Source: a virus. Taken from it: a DNA stretch of 64,000 nucleotides. Under the pieces are notes generated by a model. That model had not been told where the DNA came from. It did not search any database and saw nothing but the letters and a program-made list of their open reading frames with translations. The stretch spans positions 1 through 64,000 of the IMG/VR virus record IMGVR_UViG_3300046690_000339. One strand, written 5' to 3'. Shown here piece after piece: positions 2,220-36,429 of this stretch. Each line of letters begins with the position of its first letter. The first letter of the stretch is position 1. Made by a program: the position numbers and the translations under genes.

Positions 2220-3411
2220 TCACGCGTGACCCTACAGCCCCGGTTAAGGGCAATGCGGCTTGAACCGGTACCGTTTTAGTTGCACTCTGAGCAGCCAAAA
2301 CTGGCTCAAAAACATGGGCAGCAAGATGGCGTACTACCGGAACAACGACACCATCCCCCGTTAGATGATACGCCTCATTGTAGTTCCCTGGCAGATCGTA
2401 ATCGTCGGGAAGGCCCATTAGGCGCGCGGTTTCGCGTGTTGAAATTAATCTTGATTTTACCGATCGCCCGTCCACCACAACGATAACCTGCCGACTTGAC
2501 CCACCGGCGGGAGTTCTCAGACAACCCGCAACATCATCGAAACGGACCTCCGCTCGCTGCACCTTGTCGCCGTCCTCATCATGGCGAGTTCGTTTGTAAA
2601 CGGTTCCGACCATGCGCCGGCCCATGCGCTTTGCTATTTCAACTTTCTTCAGATTGATATCGCTCATCATTGCAAGCAATTCGCGGGTTTCCGCTGCTGT
2701 ACGCCATTCAACGCTGGTTGGATTGTCTTCTATGATATCGACGAATCGGTTCTTGCGCTTCGCCGGTTCTGGAAAATTCCACCAAACCCAATTGTTCTTC
2801 ATCTTGGCGGGCAGCCGTTCGTATGCCGCTCGAAGGGCGCGAGTGTGCCATCGTTCTGATGGTTCCCCTGATAACGCGACTGGCAATTCACAGCCTTCTT
2901 TGACGCCGATGACGAAAAGCCTTGGTCGTGATTGCGGTACGAAGAGTGCGGCGTCGATTACAACTGCTCCGAACTTGTAACCTTCCTGTTGGAAGGCGGA
3001 GCAAATTGTGGTGAAGTCTTTGCCACCGTGCGATGTGATCGTTCCGCAGACGTTCTCCAATGCGATTATCGATGGGGCGCGATCTTCCTTGATGAGAGCC
3101 TTCATGAGATTCCAAAAAGGCCAGAACGTGCCGGAACGCTCGCCTTTTAGCCCAGCGCCAGCACCCGCAAGCGACAAGTCCTGGCATGGGAAAGAGGCCC
3201 AAACCATATTCGCTTTGTCAGGTAGGTCACCCAGAACCAAAGAAGTTACATCTGCTGCCTTGAGGATGCCCTTGCCCCAATTCTTTTCATATATCCGTGC
3301 TTTCTTGAAATCAAAATCGTTAGAAAAAAGGCAGCTCCACTCTTTACCAAGACCGGCACGCGCCATTCCAGCGCCCGCGAAAAATTCGTAAAATGTTAGC
3401 CCCGGTTTCAA
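2188..3411 (-). CDS. C5-cytosine DNA methyltransferase
   Basis: EFFAGAG, FPCQDLS, ENV, PQSRPR, RETARLMG and GDGVVVP motifs. Confidence 0.93.
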   Translation of the reverse strand: MKPGLTFYEFFAGAGMARAGLGKEWSCLFSNDFDFKKARIYEKNWGKGILKAADVTSLVLGDLPDKANMVWASFPCQDLSLAGAGAGLKGERSGTFWPFWNLMKALIKEDRAPSIIALENVCGTITSHGGKDFTTICSAFQQEGYKFGAVVIDAALFVPQSRPRLFVIGVKEGCELPVALSGEPSERWHTRALRAAYERLPAKMKNNWVWWNFPEPAKRKNRFVDIIEDNPTSVEWRTAAETRELLAMMSDINLKKVEIAKRMGRRMVGTVYKRTRHDEDGDKVQRAEVRFDDVAGCLRTPAGGSSRQVIVVVDGRSVKSRLISTRETARLMGLPDDYDLPGNYNEAYHLTGDGVVVPVVRHLAAHVFEPVLAAQSATKTVPVQAALPLTGAVGSRVSEEIPENARS

Positions 3412-3550
3412 GTGGTTCCCCTTTGTCGGAGTATGAGCGGAAGCTGTAGGTCACCAGTTCTGTGACGCTCAAGAAATTCACGGATGGCAACCAGCTCGGC
3501 GTCGAACACGTGGCCGCAGTCACAACTTATGCGCGTGGTTGAGATTCTCA

Positions 3551-4135
3551 TCATGCCCTCGCCGGCATCACGGCGCCGGTCACCCTGTCCATGCCCGCCG
3601 CGCTAGCTTCGATCTTGACGGGATCCTCCTCGCCTGCATAGTACATGTGAAACGTTTCGACCCCGACCGCCCTCAGCGCCTTGAGGAGCTTCTCTAGTGT
3701 CTCGACCTTGAACGCGATTTCGCCGATCTTTTCCTGCTTTTGTTCAAGATGCGACTCATACGTGAACAGATCGAGCTGTGCCGTGGGCAGGAATTTATAT
3801 CTGCCGACCGATATCGCCAGCGGCCCGTCTCCATGGGAGACCGTAATCGTGGCGGCTTCGCCGGTTAGAGCCTTCGCTTTGAGAATCTGCGCGCACATCT
3901 CAGACTCGACCGTGAACGGCTCCTTGATGTCGAATTTCTCGGCCGGGATGAGCTTTAAAAGCATGTGACCGTCGGTCGCCATCGCGGAGCTCGGCTCGAT
4001 TCTCACACAGCGGAGCTGTGTCCGCTCCTCATCCGTGCTGGCTGCTTTCCAGAGCGCGAAGATTTGCGCTGGTAGGGCTTTGAACTCCTCGACTTTCTCG
4101 GCTATTTTTTCGTCGGCTTTCTTTGTTTTAGGCAT
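3551..4135 (-). CDS. beta-clamp-like phage protein
   Basis: RTQLRCVRI...ATDGHML and a C-terminal GAVMPAR, resembling DnaN domains. Confidence 0.55.
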   Translation of the reverse strand: MPKTKKADEKIAEKVEEFKALPAQIFALWKAASTDEERTQLRCVRIEPSSAMATDGHMLLKLIPAEKFDIKEPFTVESEMCAQILKAKALTGEAATITVSHGDGPLAISVGRYKFLPTAQLDLFTYESHLEQKQEKIGEIAFKVETLEKLLKALRAVGVETFHMYYAGEEDPVKIEASAAGMDRVTGAVMPARA

Positions 4136-30573: not shown

Positions 30574-31776
30574 CTATTGCTCAAATTGCATCGCTGCGCC
30601 GTCCTCAAACTCGATCACGTTGCCGTCTTGGAATAGCATCTCGAAGGCGCCGAAATCGGCGGCGCCCGACGGATTGATGATCGCGTGCCCAGGATAGCCG
30701 CGCCCGACTTCGGCGCTGATTTGGTAAATGTTGATATGTAAGTTGGTGCCCTTTAGCCCACCGAAATCGGTTGTCTGATCCGCATCGTTATACGTGAAGG
30801 CTTCGGTCGTCGAGGTCAGCGTGCGAAGCACTGCGCTTTCATCATCCTCCAAGATATCCAGTTCGTAACTTTCCGCCGTCTCGGCAAGAGGCGGATCGTA
30901 AAAGTCCCGACCGTTGCGTCCTTGTAAACGGCTGCGCCGCTTGAAAGTAATCTGGACGTCATCCCCGATATCGGCCAAGCCACGAATGTCCACTGGAGCC
31001 CATGGCTTCAACGATATGCCGGTGTCGGTAAACGTGGTCGCTTGCGCACCGGTTATGTCCATGCCAGACGATACGGCTTTGAATTGCCGCGGCTGGCTAA
31101 TCACGGCCAGCGCATCGTTGATGCGGAAGGTAATCGCCTGGCGTAAAAGAATCGCCCGCTCATTCAGCAAGTGCGTTGCCATCGCCCACTCGGTTCCCTT
31201 ATAGCCGCGCACCATGGGACCGTCCAAGCTCCAGCGCGTCGCCGATAGCTGGCTGACATTCTGAGACAGCACGATTTCATCGCCGATCAAGTAAGCCACT
31301 TCGCCTTTCAGCATCTCTTCCAATGACATGCTTTCCAGCGTGCCGCCGATCAATTCGATCTCAAGCGTGTTGGCATAATCCAGCGTATTGATTTCGCCGG
31401 CCGGCAGCACTTCCTTGGCGAAACCGATCGGCGACGCTTGATCAACCGTTTTCACCTGCTGAAAATCCGCGGTATCATCGTCACTTTGCCAGAGGCTCGC
31501 CGCGCCCCAGGTCGCCAACGCGCCGCGCATGGCGACATAAAAGCCCGCGCCATCATCGGCATCGCGCAGCGTCGGGATATCCATTAAGCGCAGGATCGTC
31601 GAGCCCGGAACATTGACCGTCTGGTTCGGGAAGTTCGCCCGGACCGCTGTGACCGGATCGCCGAGCGCCTGACTGAAATAAATGGCGGGATCTTCCCGGT
31701 AGATTTTTACCGTGATCAATCCCTCGGCGGCCAGCGTCGCCTCGGCAATTCTTGCGGTGATATCTCGGGTTGCCAT
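30574..31776 (-). CDS. GTA-like central tail/host-specificity protein, C-terminal half
   Basis: LMDIPTLRDADD..GFYVA, IGDEI, RGYKGTE, RRSR and PLAE..ESYELDI motifs. Confidence 0.8.
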   Translation of the reverse strand: MATRDITARIAEATLAAEGLITVKIYREDPAIYFSQALGDPVTAVRANFPNQTVNVPGSTILRLMDIPTLRDADDGAGFYVAMRGALATWGAASLWQSDDDTADFQQVKTVDQASPIGFAKEVLPAGEINTLDYANTLEIELIGGTLESMSLEEMLKGEVAYLIGDEIVLSQNVSQLSATRWSLDGPMVRGYKGTEWAMATHLLNERAILLRQAITFRINDALAVISQPRQFKAVSSGMDITGAQATTFTDTGISLKPWAPVDIRGLADIGDDVQITFKRRSRLQGRNGRDFYDPPLAETAESYELDILEDDESAVLRTLTSTTEAFTYNDADQTTDFGGLKGTNLHINIYQISAEVGRGYPGHAIINPSGAADFGAFEMLFQDGNVIEFEDGAAMQFEQ

Positions 31777-31783
31777 TTAAGCC
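31774..31783. repeat. 10-bp direct repeat copy 1 (GGCTTAAATG on the minus strand)
   Basis: catttaagcc, identical to 34123-34132. Confidence 0.75.
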
Positions 31784-34125
31784 ATTGCCCCTAACAGCGG
31801 CGCATCGTCATAACAACGCCGATTTCCCAGCTCACAATACTTCCGCTCCAAGTCCATCCCGATGCCGCGCCGGTTCATCTTGTCAGCGACTAGCGCCGTC
31901 GTCCCTGAACCGCTGAACGGGTCAAGAATGATCGCGCCGGGCTTCGATACCAGCTTGATGAGATACTCGATCAGGTCTTGAGGCTTGACGGTCGGATGAT
32001 TGTTGCCCTCGCCACGGTCGGCCTTGTCGGCCTTGGCGGTATAGTGAAATCTATTTGCTGAGTCCGCTTCCCCACGAACCGTATTGAATAGCGTGATGTT
32101 GAATGTGGCAGGCTCTACAGACCCATTTGATTTCCAGCGGCTTATTGTAATCGTCGTGATGTCGGTCCGCCTTTGGGTTGCCGCAATTTTCACAAGGCAA
32201 CCGTTCGGGAAAGGCTTTTCTTGCTGCAGCTCGGGCGAGACATTTTTTTCTAAACTCAGAATTGCTGTGATAAGCGACTCGCAAAGTTTTCTTAACTCTC
32301 TCGGCGTTGCGCTCATAAAATGGTGCGTTGAATCGCTTAATCCAAGTCGTCCTTGGCTGGCCAAAATTGCTGCATGACTTAGAGCAGAAGCGACGTGATC
32401 GCTTGACAGGAAAGAAAGGTCGTCGGCAGTATTCGCAAGGTCTTGATTCCATGCTATTATTATAGCCTTGGCGTTGCAAAAAAGCGACTCAATTTCATTC
32501 AAAGAAACAGTTTTAAAAAACCGTGACGCGCCGCCGGTGTCGCCATACCAGTCAATCGGGTCTGCCCCTCTACTCTCTGCACCATAAACATTGCCTTGAT
32601 GACCAGACGTTGTTTTGGCGCGACTAACTGTTTTACCGCTGGTCAATTCCCCGCTCTGCTCATCGAGCAGCGCCGCCGCTTCTTCGTCGAGGATTAGGTT
32701 GGCGGGCCAACGACCGACGTTGCTGTGATGATTCGCTTTTGTCGGATCGTAGTTATCGCCAAGGCCGGTTTGAGACGGTCGCCCATTCGCGCCGCATTTA
32801 TAATCGCCATCGAGGTTGATTCGACACCCGTCGATATTCAGCGCCCCGGTACCGTATCGCTGCACGTTTTCGGCTACAGTGCCGATGATCGGCTTGCGGG
32901 CGACGATGATCGGCTGGAACTTAGGCCGTAATCCCAGCCCTATTTCTTCCGGGTGTAAGCGCTGCGCCTCGTCGATAGCATCGCCTAGAACAGAAAGCTC
33001 TTGGATGGCGTTGATGCTCGTGACGACGGCGTTCAAATATCTTGCCGCAGGCAAGGCATTTAACTGTAACCCAGGCGCTTGCAACTCTGCCTTTATGATG
33101 ATGCTTGGAGTGAGCGCCGATAAGCATAACTTCAAGATTTTTAGGTCGATTGTCGGATTTGTTTTCGATTCCCTCTCGCTTGTGGTGGACGTGCTCATTT
33201 CGTCGAAGTGGGCGACCAAGGCGCTGCGCCATGACGACACGATGCTCAAGCTCGTATTTATCGCCGACACGCACAGCGACGTATCCGTCTTTGCGCGTAA
33301 ATCGTCCCAAATATTCTTTGGCTGCTCGACATCCCATCGAGCAAAAGCGAGCGCCGCGTCGTGCTCTGCTTGGCTTAACTTGAAATGTTGTTCCGCAATT
33401 CTCGCAGGTAATATCGACCATAGTTGCGCCTCCAATTTCAATAGGTTCGCAACTATTATACTCCGTTCCGTTGATTCTGGAAATGGTTTTTGTGCTACTA
33501 TGATATTTTCCCATGCGGGTTTAAGCGCCGTGCCCCAGCCTTGCCACTCTTTTGCGGCGTCGGTAGATGGTGCAGTGAGTTTTTCTATTCCATAACCAAA
33601 GATAGCAGTATTGTTTCGATTAGCTTCAGCTGCGGCCATCGTGACGCCGTTTCGTTTTGCCGCCTGAACATCTCCCCTAACTTTTTCTCCAACAATCTCC
33701 CGCTCCGCTCCTGCCGCCTTATCAATCGCCTTACTCACGTCCAACGATTTCGGAAATCCGCTGCCGTAGAGCCACATGATGCAATCACGAATCTCAAAGC
33801 CTGCGTCCTCGATTGCGCAGGTCAGCCGGTGAAACGTCCGCGTGCCGCCGAAGGCGAGCAGGTAAGCGCCGGGCTTGAGCACGCGGAGGGCTTCGAGCCA
33901 GTATTCAACTCCCGGCACAACGGCGTCCCATTTTTGGCCCATGAATCCGCCGCCAGTTGTTACACGCGAGCGACCTGCAGGAGATTTCAGATTCAACGAA
34001 GCCGCGCCGCTTCCGCCTTTTTTGTTTTGAGTAAGTCCGTAAGGCGGATCGGTGATGATGGCGTCCACCGAATTATCCTTCAGCGGTACTTGTCTTGCGT
34101 CGGCGTTGAGAATTTTCCAGCTCAT
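31777..34125 (-). CDS. N6/N4 DNA methyltransferase (beta class) with two in-frame insertions
   Basis: TDPPY, WLYGSGFPKS, GRWPAN, HPTVKP and LDPFSGSGTT. 782 aa; 427 aa without the inserts. Confidence 0.93.
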   Translation of the reverse strand: MSWKILNADARQVPLKDNSVDAIITDPPYGLTQNKKGGSGAASLNLKSPAGRSRVTTGGGFMGQKWDAVVPGVEYWLEALRVLKPGAYLLAFGGTRTFHRLTCAIEDAGFEIRDCIMWLYGSGFPKSLDVSKAIDKAAGAEREIVGEKVRGDVQAAKRNGVTMAAAEANRNNTAIFGYGIEKLTAPSTDAAKEWQGWGTALKPAWENIIVAQKPFPESTERSIIVANLLKLEAQLWSILPARIAEQHFKLSQAEHDAALAFARWDVEQPKNIWDDLRAKTDTSLCVSAINTSLSIVSSWRSALVAHFDEMSTSTTSERESKTNPTIDLKILKLCLSALTPSIIIKAELQAPGLQLNALPAARYLNAVVTSINAIQELSVLGDAIDEAQRLHPEEIGLGLRPKFQPIIVARKPIIGTVAENVQRYGTGALNIDGCRINLDGDYKCGANGRPSQTGLGDNYDPTKANHHSNVGRWPANLILDEEAAALLDEQSGELTSGKTVSRAKTTSGHQGNVYGAESRGADPIDWYGDTGGASRFFKTVSLNEIESLFCNAKAIIIAWNQDLANTADDLSFLSSDHVASALSHAAILASQGRLGLSDSTHHFMSATPRELRKLCESLITAILSLEKNVSPELQQEKPFPNGCLVKIAATQRRTDITTITISRWKSNGSVEPATFNITLFNTVRGEADSANRFHYTAKADKADRGEGNNHPTVKPQDLIEYLIKLVSKPGAIILDPFSGSGTTALVADKMNRRGIGMDLERKYCELGNRRCYDDAPLLGAMA
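32051..32452 (-). CDS. hidden HNH endonuclease 2 (-1 frame inside the methylase)
   Basis: CEYC...FCSKSC, PCENCG...HHDDYNKPLEIKWVCRACH...H; TATAAT 6 nt before the ATG. Confidence 0.85.
   Translation of the reverse strand: MESRPCEYCRRPFFPVKRSRRFCSKSCSNFGQPRTTWIKRFNAPFYERNAERVKKTLRVAYHSNSEFRKKCLARAAARKAFPERLPCENCGNPKADRHHDDYNKPLEIKWVCRACHIQHHAIQYGSWGSGLSK
32921..33421 (-). CDS. hidden HNH endonuclease 1 (-1 frame inside the methylase)
   Basis: CENCG...FCSMGC, DGY, EHRVVM...LGRPL...VHH...DNRPKNL...H..HH; GGAGG SD and TATAAT upstream. Confidence 0.88.
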   Translation of the reverse strand: MVDITCENCGTTFQVKPSRARRGARFCSMGCRAAKEYLGRFTRKDGYVAVRVGDKYELEHRVVMAQRLGRPLRRNEHVHHKREGIENKSDNRPKNLEVMLIGAHSKHHHKGRVASAWVTVKCLACGKIFERRRHEHQRHPRAFCSRRCYRRGAALTPGRNRAGITA

Positions 34126-34132
34126 TTAAGCC
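34123..34132. repeat. 10-bp direct repeat copy 2
   Basis: catttaagcc, identical to 31774-31783. Confidence 0.75.
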
Positions 34133-36429
34133 GCTACCCTCAAGTTCACCGGATCAGCCGCATCCAGCGCCACATATTTTCTAGGCAGCATCAGCACGCG
34201 CGGATCGCGTTCGAGCCAGTGCGTCGCGCTTAAAACCTCGGCAATCTGTTTCGCCTTGGTCGATGTCATCACAATAGCAAGATCTACCGTAACCACGTTT
34301 TTCGATTCGCTGTTTAATCGACCTGACGAAACAACGTGACCGGTTTGATAGCTCGCATCCTGATCTTTAAACCGTACGTGGACAATGACAGGGAGTTCGC
34401 TTTCCTGCGAGCGCGTGATTTCCTGCACCGGCGGAAGAGCGGCGTTCAAGTCGAGCCGCGCCGCACAATCCCCCTGCAGTATCGTCGCCACGGCATTATG
34501 TCCGCGCTTGCGGAAGTAAAGCATGTTGTCGCTTTCCGGCCCGTCATAGTAGGCATAGCGCTGGAGCGGTAGCGTGGCGTCGCGGCCTGTCATCTGCTGA
34601 TCGAGGGTGAAGCCGCGCACGCAATCGGTAAGCTCGGTGACGTTGAATTCGTTTTCTTCCATACCGCAAGCGATGCAGATATCACGCTGGATTTTCCACA
34701 GCGGACAGCACAGACCCTCGGCACCCGGTGCCCAGGCATGAACGGTGAAGTCATAAAATCCCCAAGTGCCAAAATTCCCGGTGTACCAAATTCCATTTCG
34801 GACAAAGAGCGTACCGTCGAGGCCCGAGTTGACATGAGGAGTCGCCGATTGACCAAGAAAAGTTATTTCGCCATCGTTCCAATCCCAAAAGAGCGCCGAG
34901 CCGAAAGTCTGTCCGGTATTGCCAAAAAGTCTTATTCGGGTATCGCTCTCGACGAAAAAATTTCGGACTTTATTCGTGCCAAGATCGTAACTTTGCACAA
35001 GCGACATATCTTCGGGGTCGAACTTATAAAGCATCGCGTGCGCGAGAATATTTCCGAATGCGTCAAAATTGACTCCGCGCAAGGCCCACAAAAAGTCATC
35101 GCCCATATTGATGCTGCTAAGACCGCCATGATCCGTCCAAAAGCTGTCGGCGATCTTACCGATCAATGCACCGCCATCCGCGTTGAATCGCTCGATCAGT
35201 GAAAATTTTCCTCCTGTCGGGACCCGACGCATCAAATAAAGATCGGTTCCCTTCTTCGCAAAGAAATCATAAGGCGGCTGCGGCGGCCCGATTGTTGTGA
35301 TAATTTTTCCTGCACGCACGAGCCAAGCTTTGCCGTCACTCGCGAAGAGCGCAGCCGGTTCGTCGCTGACTCCAGTCGCCATCACGCCGCCCAATTCGCT
35401 TGGGCTCGAATTGTCTGTAAAGACTGCCGGCGGTCGTTCTTCTTCGATGTATGATCCATCCGATAGCAGGCGAAACGCGCGAATGAAATACTCGCCTGCA
35501 TTGGGGCCGCTCGGAATGATGTCGGTATAGACTTGGCTCCCATGACCGACCATCATCAGAATTTCGCCGTTAGGATCGACATAGGACCAACTGCCGAAGC
35601 TACCGCTTGCGCCGCCCTCATCGGTCATCTGCCAGTAGCCTTTTTCCTGATAATTTTCATCGCCGTCCGTGTAGCACTCAAAAGAAAGATTCGGGATAGT
35701 CCCGTACTCCGTCGTCTCGAAATCTTGAAAGACGGCCAAGAATTGATTTCTATACGCCGTGGTATTACCGACGCCCTCGAAGGCTTCGATTAGCGCGGGC
35801 GGCAGCTGTTCTTCGTTGCCATCATAAAAAGTAACCGAGCCGGCGTTTCTGCCTTCGAGATTCTGCCCGGTGCCAATTAGGCTTTGCAGACTGGCATCCA
35901 TGCTGTGATCATAAATTAATTTTGGCCCGGCCCAGATTCGGATCACGCCACGGCAGTTCGACGCGCCATTTATCGCCACGGCAAAGTCGGCAAAGTACGT
36001 AAACGTTTCACCCGACGACCCACCTTTGCCCTTACCGCCGACGGTGTGCTTAAATGTGCGAATGCCACGACCGCCATGGCCGTCCGAGCCGATCCAGATC
36101 AAATTTCCTGCCATGCGATCGACGCCCCAGAATCGTTTGATCGGCGAGCCGAATGCGGCCGATTGAATGTGTGCGTCTTTCAGGCGCGGTCCGGTTACGC
36201 TTTGGTTTGCGCCTTGGAATATTGAAAACAGAGTTGAACTTATTGACCACGCCAGTTGCGCACTGGTGAGAATCGAGCTTACCGACCACGTTGCGGCGGC
36301 GGCAGTAGCGCCGGCCGCAACCTCGGCAGCAACCGCGCTCGCCGCCGCCACTCCGGTCGTCGCAGCTGCGCCGCCAGCGCCAATCTCGGCGGCGGAGCCG
36401 ACTGCCGCCATTATTGTAACAAAACTCAT
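34126..36429 (-). CDS. GTA-like central tail/host-specificity protein, N-terminal part
   Basis: GPRL...FG.PI...G..RMAGNLIW, RIWA, AYR, IPNLSFE, QESELP...YQ and LDAADPV. Confidence 0.85.
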   Translation of the reverse strand: MSFVTIMAAVGSAAEIGAGGAAATTGVAAASAVAAEVAAGATAAAATWSVSSILTSAQLAWSISSTLFSIFQGANQSVTGPRLKDAHIQSAAFGSPIKRFWGVDRMAGNLIWIGSDGHGGRGIRTFKHTVGGKGKGGSSGETFTYFADFAVAINGASNCRGVIRIWAGPKLIYDHSMDASLQSLIGTGQNLEGRNAGSVTFYDGNEEQLPPALIEAFEGVGNTTAYRNQFLAVFQDFETTEYGTIPNLSFECYTDGDENYQEKGYWQMTDEGGASGSFGSWSYVDPNGEILMMVGHGSQVYTDIIPSGPNAGEYFIRAFRLLSDGSYIEEERPPAVFTDNSSPSELGGVMATGVSDEPAALFASDGKAWLVRAGKIITTIGPPQPPYDFFAKKGTDLYLMRRVPTGGKFSLIERFNADGGALIGKIADSFWTDHGGLSSINMGDDFLWALRGVNFDAFGNILAHAMLYKFDPEDMSLVQSYDLGTNKVRNFFVESDTRIRLFGNTGQTFGSALFWDWNDGEITFLGQSATPHVNSGLDGTLFVRNGIWYTGNFGTWGFYDFTVHAWAPGAEGLCCPLWKIQRDICIACGMEENEFNVTELTDCVRGFTLDQQMTGRDATLPLQRYAYYDGPESDNMLYFRKRGHNAVATILQGDCAARLDLNAALPPVQEITRSQESELPVIVHVRFKDQDASYQTGHVVSSGRLNSESKNVVTVDLAIVMTSTKAKQIAEVLSATHWLERDPRVLMLPRKYVALDAADPVNLRVAA

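Follow-up and report, generated by a model that had tools for sequence, protein, structure and literature searches.

Two out-of-frame HNH nuclease cassettes in a viral DNA methylase gene and the copies of protein motifs that flank them

The window analysed here is a 64,000-nucleotide (nt) stretch, positions 1 to 64,000 of the IMG/VR virus record IMGVR_UViG_3300046690_000339. It belongs to an uncultured phage with a guanine and cytosine (GC) content of 55% and tail genes like those of gene transfer agents (GTAs); the phage is not an actinophage, and a megablast search of 31000-35000 against phages returned no near relative. The gene under study is located on the minus strand at 31777-34125, where the list of open reading frames (ORFs) places a beta-class N6/N4 DNA methyltransferase, hereafter the methylase, of 782 amino acids (aa; PF01555, E=6.8e-31). 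The beta-class order is satisfied, with motif IV (DPPY, residues 26-29) followed by motifs X and I (FxGxG; FSGSGTT, residues 737-743), together with HPTxKP (HPTVKP, residues 710-715). The catalytic and S-adenosylmethionine motifs are all intact in the window protein and in related proteins that carry inserts. The closest solved structures identified by phmmer and Foldseek are M.BceJIV, M1.HpyAVI, CcrM, MboIIA, and RsrI. Alignment to the insert-less gp101 of Mycobacterium phage Nala (410 aa) reveals two large extra segments in the window methylase, over which the GC content is 0.42-0.50, compared to about 0.56-0.60 in the surroundings. Each segment contains an ORF of an HNH-type nuclease in the +1 frame relative to the methylase. 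All positions given below for the window are on its minus strand.

The upstream and downstream halves of an interrupted motif are denoted U and D, and the order of elements at each cassette is U-D'-HNH-U'-D. Insert 1 is an element of the ShiLan type that interrupts the motif-VIII strand ALKPAxEPIVVARKP of a PF01555 gp65-type methylase. As bounded by alignment to insert-less methylases, it extends from the glutamate of copy 1 to the proline of copy 2 (32914-33507, residues 207-404); the empty site is defined by Nala gp101 and 39 distinct insert-less motifs. Copy 1, ALKPAWENIIVAQKP (33484-33528), consists of ALKP (U, residues 200-203) and AWENIIVAQKP (D', residues 204-214) and is written in AT-rich codons, with IIVAQKP encoded by ATC ATA GTA GCA CAA AAA CCA. 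Copy 2, GLRPKFQPIIVARKP (32890-32934), consists of GLRP (U', residues 398-401) and KFQPIIVARKP (D, residues 402-412) and is written in GC-rich, host-like codons, with IIVARKP encoded by ATC ATC GTC GCC CGC AAG CCG. The two 15-residue copies are alike in eight residues and in 20 of 45 bases, and only one of the 15 third positions agrees; over the 11 codons of D, 16 of 33 bases are identical by hand count. Local alignment of the left and right junctions gives a score of 47, compared to 20.1 ± 3.6 for shuffled sequences (p=0.0005). The repeat was found in all 49 scorable homologous loci. Across these loci the two copies are 62% identical at codon positions 1 and 2 and 35% identical at position 3, which bears out the proposal of a first-pass annotation of this DNA that the motif is duplicated at the protein level and diverged at the DNA level. 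The strings and codons quoted in that annotation, for both inserts, are all present on the minus strand where it had placed them.

The nuclease of insert 1, HNH-1, has two CxxC zinc ribbons and an HNH_3 core (EH..HH..N..H), for which the Pfam matches to HNH_3 and zinc ribbon are weak (E about 1e-3). Its longest ORF is located at 32921-33514 (197 aa), and it probably starts at the ATG at 33421-33419 (32921-33421), behind a GGAGG at 33433-33429, which lies 7 nt before the start. Upstream of this methionine the HNH frame contains stops in 26 of 57 homologous loci. The stop codon of HNH-1, TAA (32923-32921), falls inside the CCT AAG of copy 2. A TATAAT hexamer is positioned shortly before the start of each of the two HNH genes, within the methylase coding sequence (33455-33460 and 32459-32464). 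Both reading frames of insert 1 have homologues in the insert of Mycobacterium phage Starcevich gp66, to which insert 1 could be aligned column for column, and in that of Cylindrospermopsis phage Cr-LKS3 g59; the HNH-1 protein is 53-54% identical to the hidden HNH proteins of these two phages (53% to the Starcevich element). The distribution of the element is patchy, and about one in 80 family members sampled via the N-terminus carries an insert of this type (L216). A search of viral contigs with the N-terminal 200 aa for a near-identical empty allele found none, the best match being 56% identical. The GC dip of insert 1 (~33650-32920) sets in ~130 base pairs (bp) ahead of copy 1 and reaches as far as copy 2, which suggests import.

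Insert 2 is located at a second conserved motif, ARFFYxAKA. The upstream native part, GGASRFF (residues 531-537, 32515-32535), includes SRFF (residues 534-537, 32515-32526); A533, R535, F536, and F537 are invariant, and the third positions of their codons are variable. It is followed by LFCNAKA (residues 548-554, 32464-32484), a partial upstream copy of the downstream Y-x-AKA, in which FCNAKA occupies residues 549-554 (32464-32481) and which overlaps the AAGG and TATAAT before the HNH-2 start. The LFxxAKA copy is limited to a subfamily comprising the window, L069, L074 (degenerate), and proteins P0121-P0129, and is absent from loci L070, L071, and L040. Copy 2 at this site (32029-32061) consists of SANRF (U', residues 689-693) and HYTAKA (D, residues 694-699), with the NRFHYTAKA string at residues 691-699 (32029-32055). 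Residues R692 and F693 are retained in six of seven loci by means of synonymous codons (AGA/CGC/AGG/CGG and TTT/TTC), and Y695, A697, K698, and A699 are invariant. The repeat recurs as (S)AxRF before Y-x-AKA in seven DNA loci and nine further proteins.

The nuclease of insert 2, HNH-2, is unrelated in sequence to HNH-1. Its motif (CxxC ... RHHDDYNKP ... CxxCH) and its relatives point to an HNH protein. The gene extends over 32051-32452 if it starts from the ATG at 32452-32450, or over 32051-32479 (142 aa) from an alternative upstream TTG at 32479. The only candidate for a ribosome-binding site is the AAGG located 13 nt before the ATG. The stop codon, TAG, falls inside the AAT AGA of copy 2, and all six embedded relatives of HNH-2 are inserted at the same RFF/Y-AKA site. 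Locus L059 combines insert 1 with a different HNH at site 2 (3524-4027), flanked by GGASRYF and GAATRFLY. Protein P0125 contains a further insert within DVSKAIDKAAGAERE, accompanied by the repeats LDVSKSID, LDVSKALD, and KAIDKAAGA.

The methylase frame of the window contains no stop over 782 codons, and the HNH frame is open over residues 201-401 and 545-691; the third frame has 16 stops in insert 1 and 10 in insert 2. A protein search with the insert 1 region returned more than 120 clusters that read through it. Such a search can only find open frames, hence the loci were re-collected via the HNH proteins alone. Among the 57 loci of close HNH-1 relatives, the methylase frame has no stop in 56 and one stop in L024, with 3-32 stops in the third frame, and seven loci of distant, free-standing relatives have 2-9 stops in the equivalent of the methylase frame. 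The six loci in which an HNH-2 relative is embedded at RFF/Y-AKA all lack methylase-frame stops and contain 6-25 stops in the third frame, and ten free-standing relatives contain 2-9 stops in the equivalent frame. The enzyme is evidently translated through both inserts, as the first-pass annotation had supposed. When HNH-1 is recoded with the codon usage of the window, 5.2 host-frame stops are expected and the probability of none is 0.0013; for HNH-2 the corresponding values are 1.7 and 0.14. This resampling was used in place of synonymous shuffles of each gene's own codons, which discriminate weakly (probability of no stop 0.08 for HNH-1 and 0.54 for HNH-2) because the codon set of the real HNH genes is already depleted in NTG and NTA. 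The comparison of reading frames shows that the host frame is kept open by selection at both inserts. In five loci (L011, L027, L031, L042, and L043) there is one stop inside the HNH-1 body and the methylase frame is still open, which suggests decay of the nuclease with maintenance of the host frame.

To locate the selected frame along site 1, base entropy was calculated for each methylase codon position in a codon alignment of 47 distinct loci. In the native flanks, the entropies of positions 1, 2, and 3 are 0.65-0.73, 0.51-0.65, and 1.41-1.48, as expected from ordinary purifying selection in the methylase frame. The values in the HNH body (residues 232-397) are 0.6-0.8, 1.2, and 0.7-0.9; entropy peaks at the second methylase position, the third of the HNH frame, and therefore only the HNH frame constrains residues there. 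The methylase-frame "domain" similarity of this part (TSTT, SWR, and LEAxLW) reflects EHVHH and other HNH motifs together with the Shine-Dalgarno sequence and ATG. Between copy 1 and the start of the HNH gene lie 17 codons with entropies of 1.43, 1.26, and 1.49 and no periodicity. The methylase pattern is found again in D' of copy 1 (residues 204-214; 0.96, 0.79, and 1.64) and in D of copy 2 (residues 402-412; 0.89, 0.61, and 1.53).

The residues conserved in the two copies are complementary. In copy 1, E206, K213, and P214 are conserved in 100% and A211 in 98% of the 47 loci, with third positions near saturation, and in copy 2, P405, A409, R410, K411, and P412 are 89-98% conserved (P405 96%, R410 89%). 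The glutamate that is present in all copies 1 of the carriers is found in only 45% of copies 2 (position 404), whereas the proline and arginine conserved in copy 2 are variable in copy 1; the insert-less relatives have the glutamate in 39 of 39 and the proline in 38 of 39 sequences. The invariant glutamate thus survives only in copy 1, and the proline and arginine only in copy 2. U' of site 1 retains a hydrophobic residue and Pro401 (89%). These substitution patterns show both motif copies at both sites to be under purifying selection in the methylase frame. Selection of both as methylase protein implies that both are translated and present in the mature enzyme, which tells more strongly than any other finding against splicing and ribosomal bypass. 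Two other causes of the conservation of D' were considered and rejected. The N-terminus of HNH-1 cannot be responsible, given the HNH-frame stops located there and the methylase-frame periodicity, and a slippery frameshift site is not supported, since no nucleotide is conserved at third positions.

The two copies of D also covary. The agreement between D' and D at five variable positions is 1.66 within a gene, compared to 1.02 ± 0.12 for shuffled partners (p=0.0002, 32 distinct pairs). Examples are the pairs WIL/WIL, PAVL/PAVL, and ITV/ITV, and in L045 a valine replaces the otherwise invariant alanine in both copies. One HNH lineage has the same D' (ETVTFASKP) throughout, and its D segments (PCIM, PVVL, PIIL) differ from host to host. 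It appears from these comparisons that D' normally travels with the element, yet tracks host-specific features. The covariation is possibly due to shared structural constraints, to homing limited to similar hosts, or to occasional re-formation of the repeat.

The structure of the window methylase was predicted using AlphaFold2 with an 80-row alignment, with a mean predicted local distance difference test score (pLDDT) of 67. Residues 406-410 of copy 2 form a strand, and the block-mean pLDDT is 73 for residues 401-410 and 93 for residues 411-420. Residues 203-214 of copy 1 have pLDDT values below 50 and no secondary structure. The same arrangement, with D in a strand and copy 1 below a pLDDT of 50, was obtained for the compact carrier P0031 (509 aa), which was modelled with carriers only. 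We infer from the two models that D, which is contiguous with the following helix, forms the core strand and that the insert is extruded. The idea of the first-pass annotation that the enzyme folds with the insert looped out agrees with the predicted position of D in the core sheet and with the extruded insert. Insert 1 contains predicted helices at residues 221-310 (pLDDT 84-90), and insert 2 has pLDDT values of 35-79. In the methylase-frame reading, residues 221-310 have codon statistics without residue-level selection, and the helices (about 33196-33465) may be an artefact of conservation in the other frame or a real helical stalk. A beta-ribbon clamp formed by D' and U' was rejected, as neither AlphaFold model contains strands there.

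The best explanation of these observations, to which we assign a probability of about 0.7, is that the HNH cassettes are not spliced, that the methylase is read through, and that both motif copies are retained in the enzyme. The gene has been colonised twice by minimal cassettes of putative homing endonucleases, each consisting essentially of an HNH ORF that has its own start signals and lies in the +1 frame relative to the host. Each interrupts a conserved motif and is flanked by a direct repeat at the protein level. With nothing removed, translation would yield a 782-residue protein with two extra segments, which is probably made and active. The downstream copy would supply the core beta-strand, and the upstream copy would keep the invariant glutamate beside ALKP; together with U', this would allow the chain to leave and re-enter the fold with the motif unbroken and the insert extruded. 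U, D', HNH-1, and U' of the window may have arrived together from an AT-richer donor. The synonymous divergence of the copies would reflect different source alleles, age, or both, and would incidentally block deletion of the cassette by recombination between the repeats and re-creation of the empty target site. The first-pass annotation had suggested that the recoding may serve to destroy the nuclease target, which finds no backing here, as third positions are merely randomised, an outcome that time or a different donor allele also gives. On the whole its interpretation is partly supported.

A more far-reaching version, which we put forward only tentatively, is that the flanking copies are an adaptive device, with the cassette carrying recoded D' and U' and rebuilding the motif at both junctions. 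D' could then act, again as a conjecture with the odds against it, as a placeholder or clamp strand with which the N-terminal half of the enzyme folds while the insert of 140-200 residues is made, before D completes the core. If true, selfish nucleases would have, in addition to introns and inteins, a third general means of residing inside conserved protein motifs.

Several observations weigh against the read-through explanation or narrow it. Because the element moves horizontally, part of the selection signature in the flanks could be older than the insertions, and the open frame could be maintained for reasons besides methylase activity; in the TAAATG at its end, the methylase stop and the start of the tail-gene ORF that follows overlap. 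Copy 1 is as conserved as copy 2, yet AlphaFold assigns it no structure, and the two models do not account for its conservation. The repeat at site 2 is short and, in the window alone, not significant (score 27, shuffled 20.8 ± 4.1, p=0.09), the GE-D part of U' at this site is dictated by the C-terminus of HNH-2, and a Pfam search of HNH-2 gave no match at E≤0.01. Other hidden HNH sites of the family (L005/L042, L054, L226, and L052/L057/L061) have no detectable flank repeat, so duplication is not obligatory. The published study of the related ShiLan domain is purely computational (PMC11855218).

One rival reading is removal at the RNA level. HNH genes are frequent passengers of phage group I introns, and the inserts could be unrecognised self-splicing introns, or be removed from RNA in another way, with the repeat serving for guide-sequence pairing. 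Arsenault, Gosselin, and Gogarten (2025, PMC11855218) considered whether the repeat could be an intron signature without deciding for or against it; their RNAweasel search was negative. A permissive Rfam search of 31500-34400 found no match at E≤10, although Rfam is limited to described families and an empty search is no proof of absence. An intron does not need an open host frame, and an early stop after the 5' splice site is usual, whereas the frame is open in nearly all HNH-1 loci and in all HNH-2 loci. Furthermore, the copies are alike in amino acids, whereas RNA pairing requires similarity of nucleotides; methylase-frame selection acts on both copies, as if neither were spliced out, and there is hardly any sequence outside the HNH ORF to accommodate a ribozyme core. 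We consider an intron improbable. Ribosomal bypass, which the first-pass annotation offered as an alternative, would use the copies as take-off and landing sites to produce a methylase of 427 aa. The bypass in T4 gene 60 is linked to a mobile HNH-type cassette, and the terminal Lys-Pro codons of the copies (AAA CCA and AAG CCG) could share transfer RNAs. However, no stop, rare codon, or stall signal follows the take-off site, and the gaps, at about 590 and 460 nt, exceed known hops (about 50 nt) by a factor of ten. Selection for an open frame across a skipped gap would be pointless, one of the two copies selected as protein would be skipped, and there is no conserved nucleotide signal, since AAA and AAG are about equally frequent at K213 and the third position of P214 is free. 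The proposal can hardly be upheld.

The duplication might instead be a functionless scar, left by a target-site-type duplication, by illegitimate recombination, or by a cleavage offset at each homing event. The topology, in which a whole motif precedes and another follows the HNH gene, is that of a direct repeat around an insert; D' covaries with the host D as if it were repeatedly derived from host sequence, and repeats are missing at other sites. A scar would not explain why E206, A211, K213, and P214 remain at 98-100% when the HNH proteins are only 41-62% identical and third positions are saturated. Moreover, in the lineage with constant D' this segment travels with the element, and the window D' has the AT-rich codons of the insert. 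A purely passive scar is therefore unlikely in our judgement, although a scar origin and a present function are not mutually exclusive. Alternatively, the methylase could be dead or irrelevant, and its frame open for avoidance of polarity, for translational coupling to downstream genes, or for HNH expression. The ATG that opens the downstream half of a split tail gene overlaps the methylase stop, as given above, and the enzyme is reported to be dispensable in related phages (PMC11855218). Nevertheless, the catalytic and S-adenosylmethionine motifs are intact here and in the carriers, avoidance of polarity would not act on which residues occupy D', D, and U', and the frame is open across many unrelated genomic contexts. 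A dead methylase appears very improbable.

The methylase family hides HNH_3-type genes at seven or more further sites, in either alternate frame, and the host frame is open in all of them; for five of seven such sites the Pfam HNH_3 match has an E-value of 1e-6 to 1e-20. Two of the genes (L005:1549-2046 and L042:2016-2489) are located between AKAS..ER and HPTVKP, and two (L054:2811-3272 and L021:3292-3888) in the target-recognition region, where L021 has an IPxxxLKY repeat at both flanks. Others are positioned before VLDPF (L039:1834-2541), near the N-terminus (L186:2307-3014, by motifs only), and after GFPKS (L226:3311-3931, HNH by motif only). In L052, L057, and L061 an HNH of the HNH-1 family, at about 2300-3040, lies directly after GFPK(S/G) and before ALKP, where it takes the place of the variable DVSKAIDKAAGAERE segment; statistics do not support a short KG(L/F)NV repeat that may be present at these three loci. 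In L058 (1579-2088) and L020 (1270-2220) an intein (CL...VTGN/S, located after WLYG) encloses the HNH_3 ORF in an alternate frame, and the middle of the intein is low-complexity in its own frame; a hidden out-of-frame nuclease seemingly replaces the in-frame one. The flank-repeat test at other sites was significant only for L021 (p=0.013) and not significant for L005, L042, L054, L039, and L052/L057/L061; for L040 and L059 the test windows were mis-set by long open frames. The statement of the first-pass annotation that each insertion rebuilds the motif it interrupts holds for both window inserts, but does not extend to several of these other sites. Several repeat-less sites lie in variable loops, which fits the view that a duplicate is of importance where the insertion cuts a conserved structural motif.

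The methylase gene is itself nested in a GTA-type host-specificity (tail) gene, which occupies 30574-36429 of the window. Compared to gp175 of Caulobacter phage BL47 (1196 aa), the upstream 767-aa ORF corresponds to residues 26-803 and the downstream 400-aa ORF to residues 807-1192. The window contains just two instances of GGCTTAAATG, in which a stop overlaps a start, and these mark the two joints (31774-31783 and 34123-34132). The resulting arrangement is one of nuclease genes within a methylase gene within a tail gene.

The ShiLan domain, described by Gosselin et al. (2023, PMC9957025) and by Arsenault, Gosselin, and Gogarten (2025, PMC11855218), occupies the same insertion site in mycobacteriophage methylases of this family. 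Its host frame is free of stops, an out-of-frame HNH fills the insert, and there is no intron or intein signature (PMC11855218). Its first 11 residues resemble the 11 residues that follow the insertion site, and Starcevich is named as a carrier (PMC11855218). Insert 1 is like the ShiLan domain in site, methylase family, homologous HNH that occupies almost all of the insert, relative frame, stop-free host frame, location of the HNH stop in the last bases of the insert, 11-residue repeat, and absence of intron and intein signatures. It differs in that a leaderless GTG was proposed as the start of the ShiLan HNH (PMC11855218), whereas HNH-1 has a canonical GGAGG and ATG. The ShiLan hosts are actinophages, and the host gene of the window also holds a second, unrelated cassette. 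The closest parallel to insert 2 is Pacc40 gp60 (PMC11855218), a read-through methylase with a second, unrelated out-of-frame nuclease ORF; it belongs to another methylase family, has a different site, and no flanking motif repeat was reported for it, whereas insert 2 is located in the ShiLan-type family at RFF/Y-AKA.

Inteins and homing elements of group I introns in the same methylase family likewise target conserved motifs and spread by homing; Lilac gp101 and Starcevich gp66, for example, contain an intein after WLYG. These elements restore the host product by splicing, whereas here nothing is removed, and tolerance would rest on an open frame and a duplicated motif. No Hint-domain Pfam match was found on the 782-aa protein. 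The first residue of insert 1 is Asn or Ala and its last is Gln, with Pro next, and insert 2 starts with Lys, whereas an intein has Cys or Ser at position 1, His-Asn at its end, and Cys, Ser, or Thr at +1; unlike in an intein, the in-frame sequence of the inserts is dictated by the HNH frame. The bypass element of T4 gene 60 with mobE resembles the inserts as a mobile nuclease cassette that breaks up a coding sequence and is neither a classical intron nor an intein. However, its untranslated hop of 50 nt, matched GGA codons, stop codon, and nascent-peptide signal have no counterpart in the window inserts. The Rickettsia palindromic elements, which Ogata et al. are said to have described in 2000, are reportedly selfish DNA that is translated in host proteins and tolerated as surface insertions. 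In contrast to the inserts described here, they are said to be about 100-150 bp long, with no gene of their own and no motif duplication.

To our knowledge, homing endonucleases have been thought to persist in conserved coding sequence only via introns or inteins. ShiLan-type elements suggest a third route, in which the element remains in the protein and the host frame is kept open. In the window, a single gene has at least two unrelated HNH lineages that follow this route, which is widespread beyond actinophages, with more than 120 protein clusters and more than 60 viral contigs. The codon choice of the nucleases is shaped to avoid host-frame stops, and the duplicated host motif is under selection on both sides. 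These findings provide a testable hypothesis of how a beta-sheet enzyme tolerates an insertion of 200 residues in a core strand. For annotation, a nuclease is probably concealed where a long "methylase" has a middle of low complexity. Judged by its sequence, insert 1 is a new member of the published ShiLan-type family, the 11-residue repeat included, and insert 2 represents a further, new lineage of this kind, which PMC11855218 does not describe. That study does not include a selection test on the repeat, the U' half, or the complementary loss of Glu versus Pro and Arg. What is new here, and incremental, is the evidence of selection on both motif copies.

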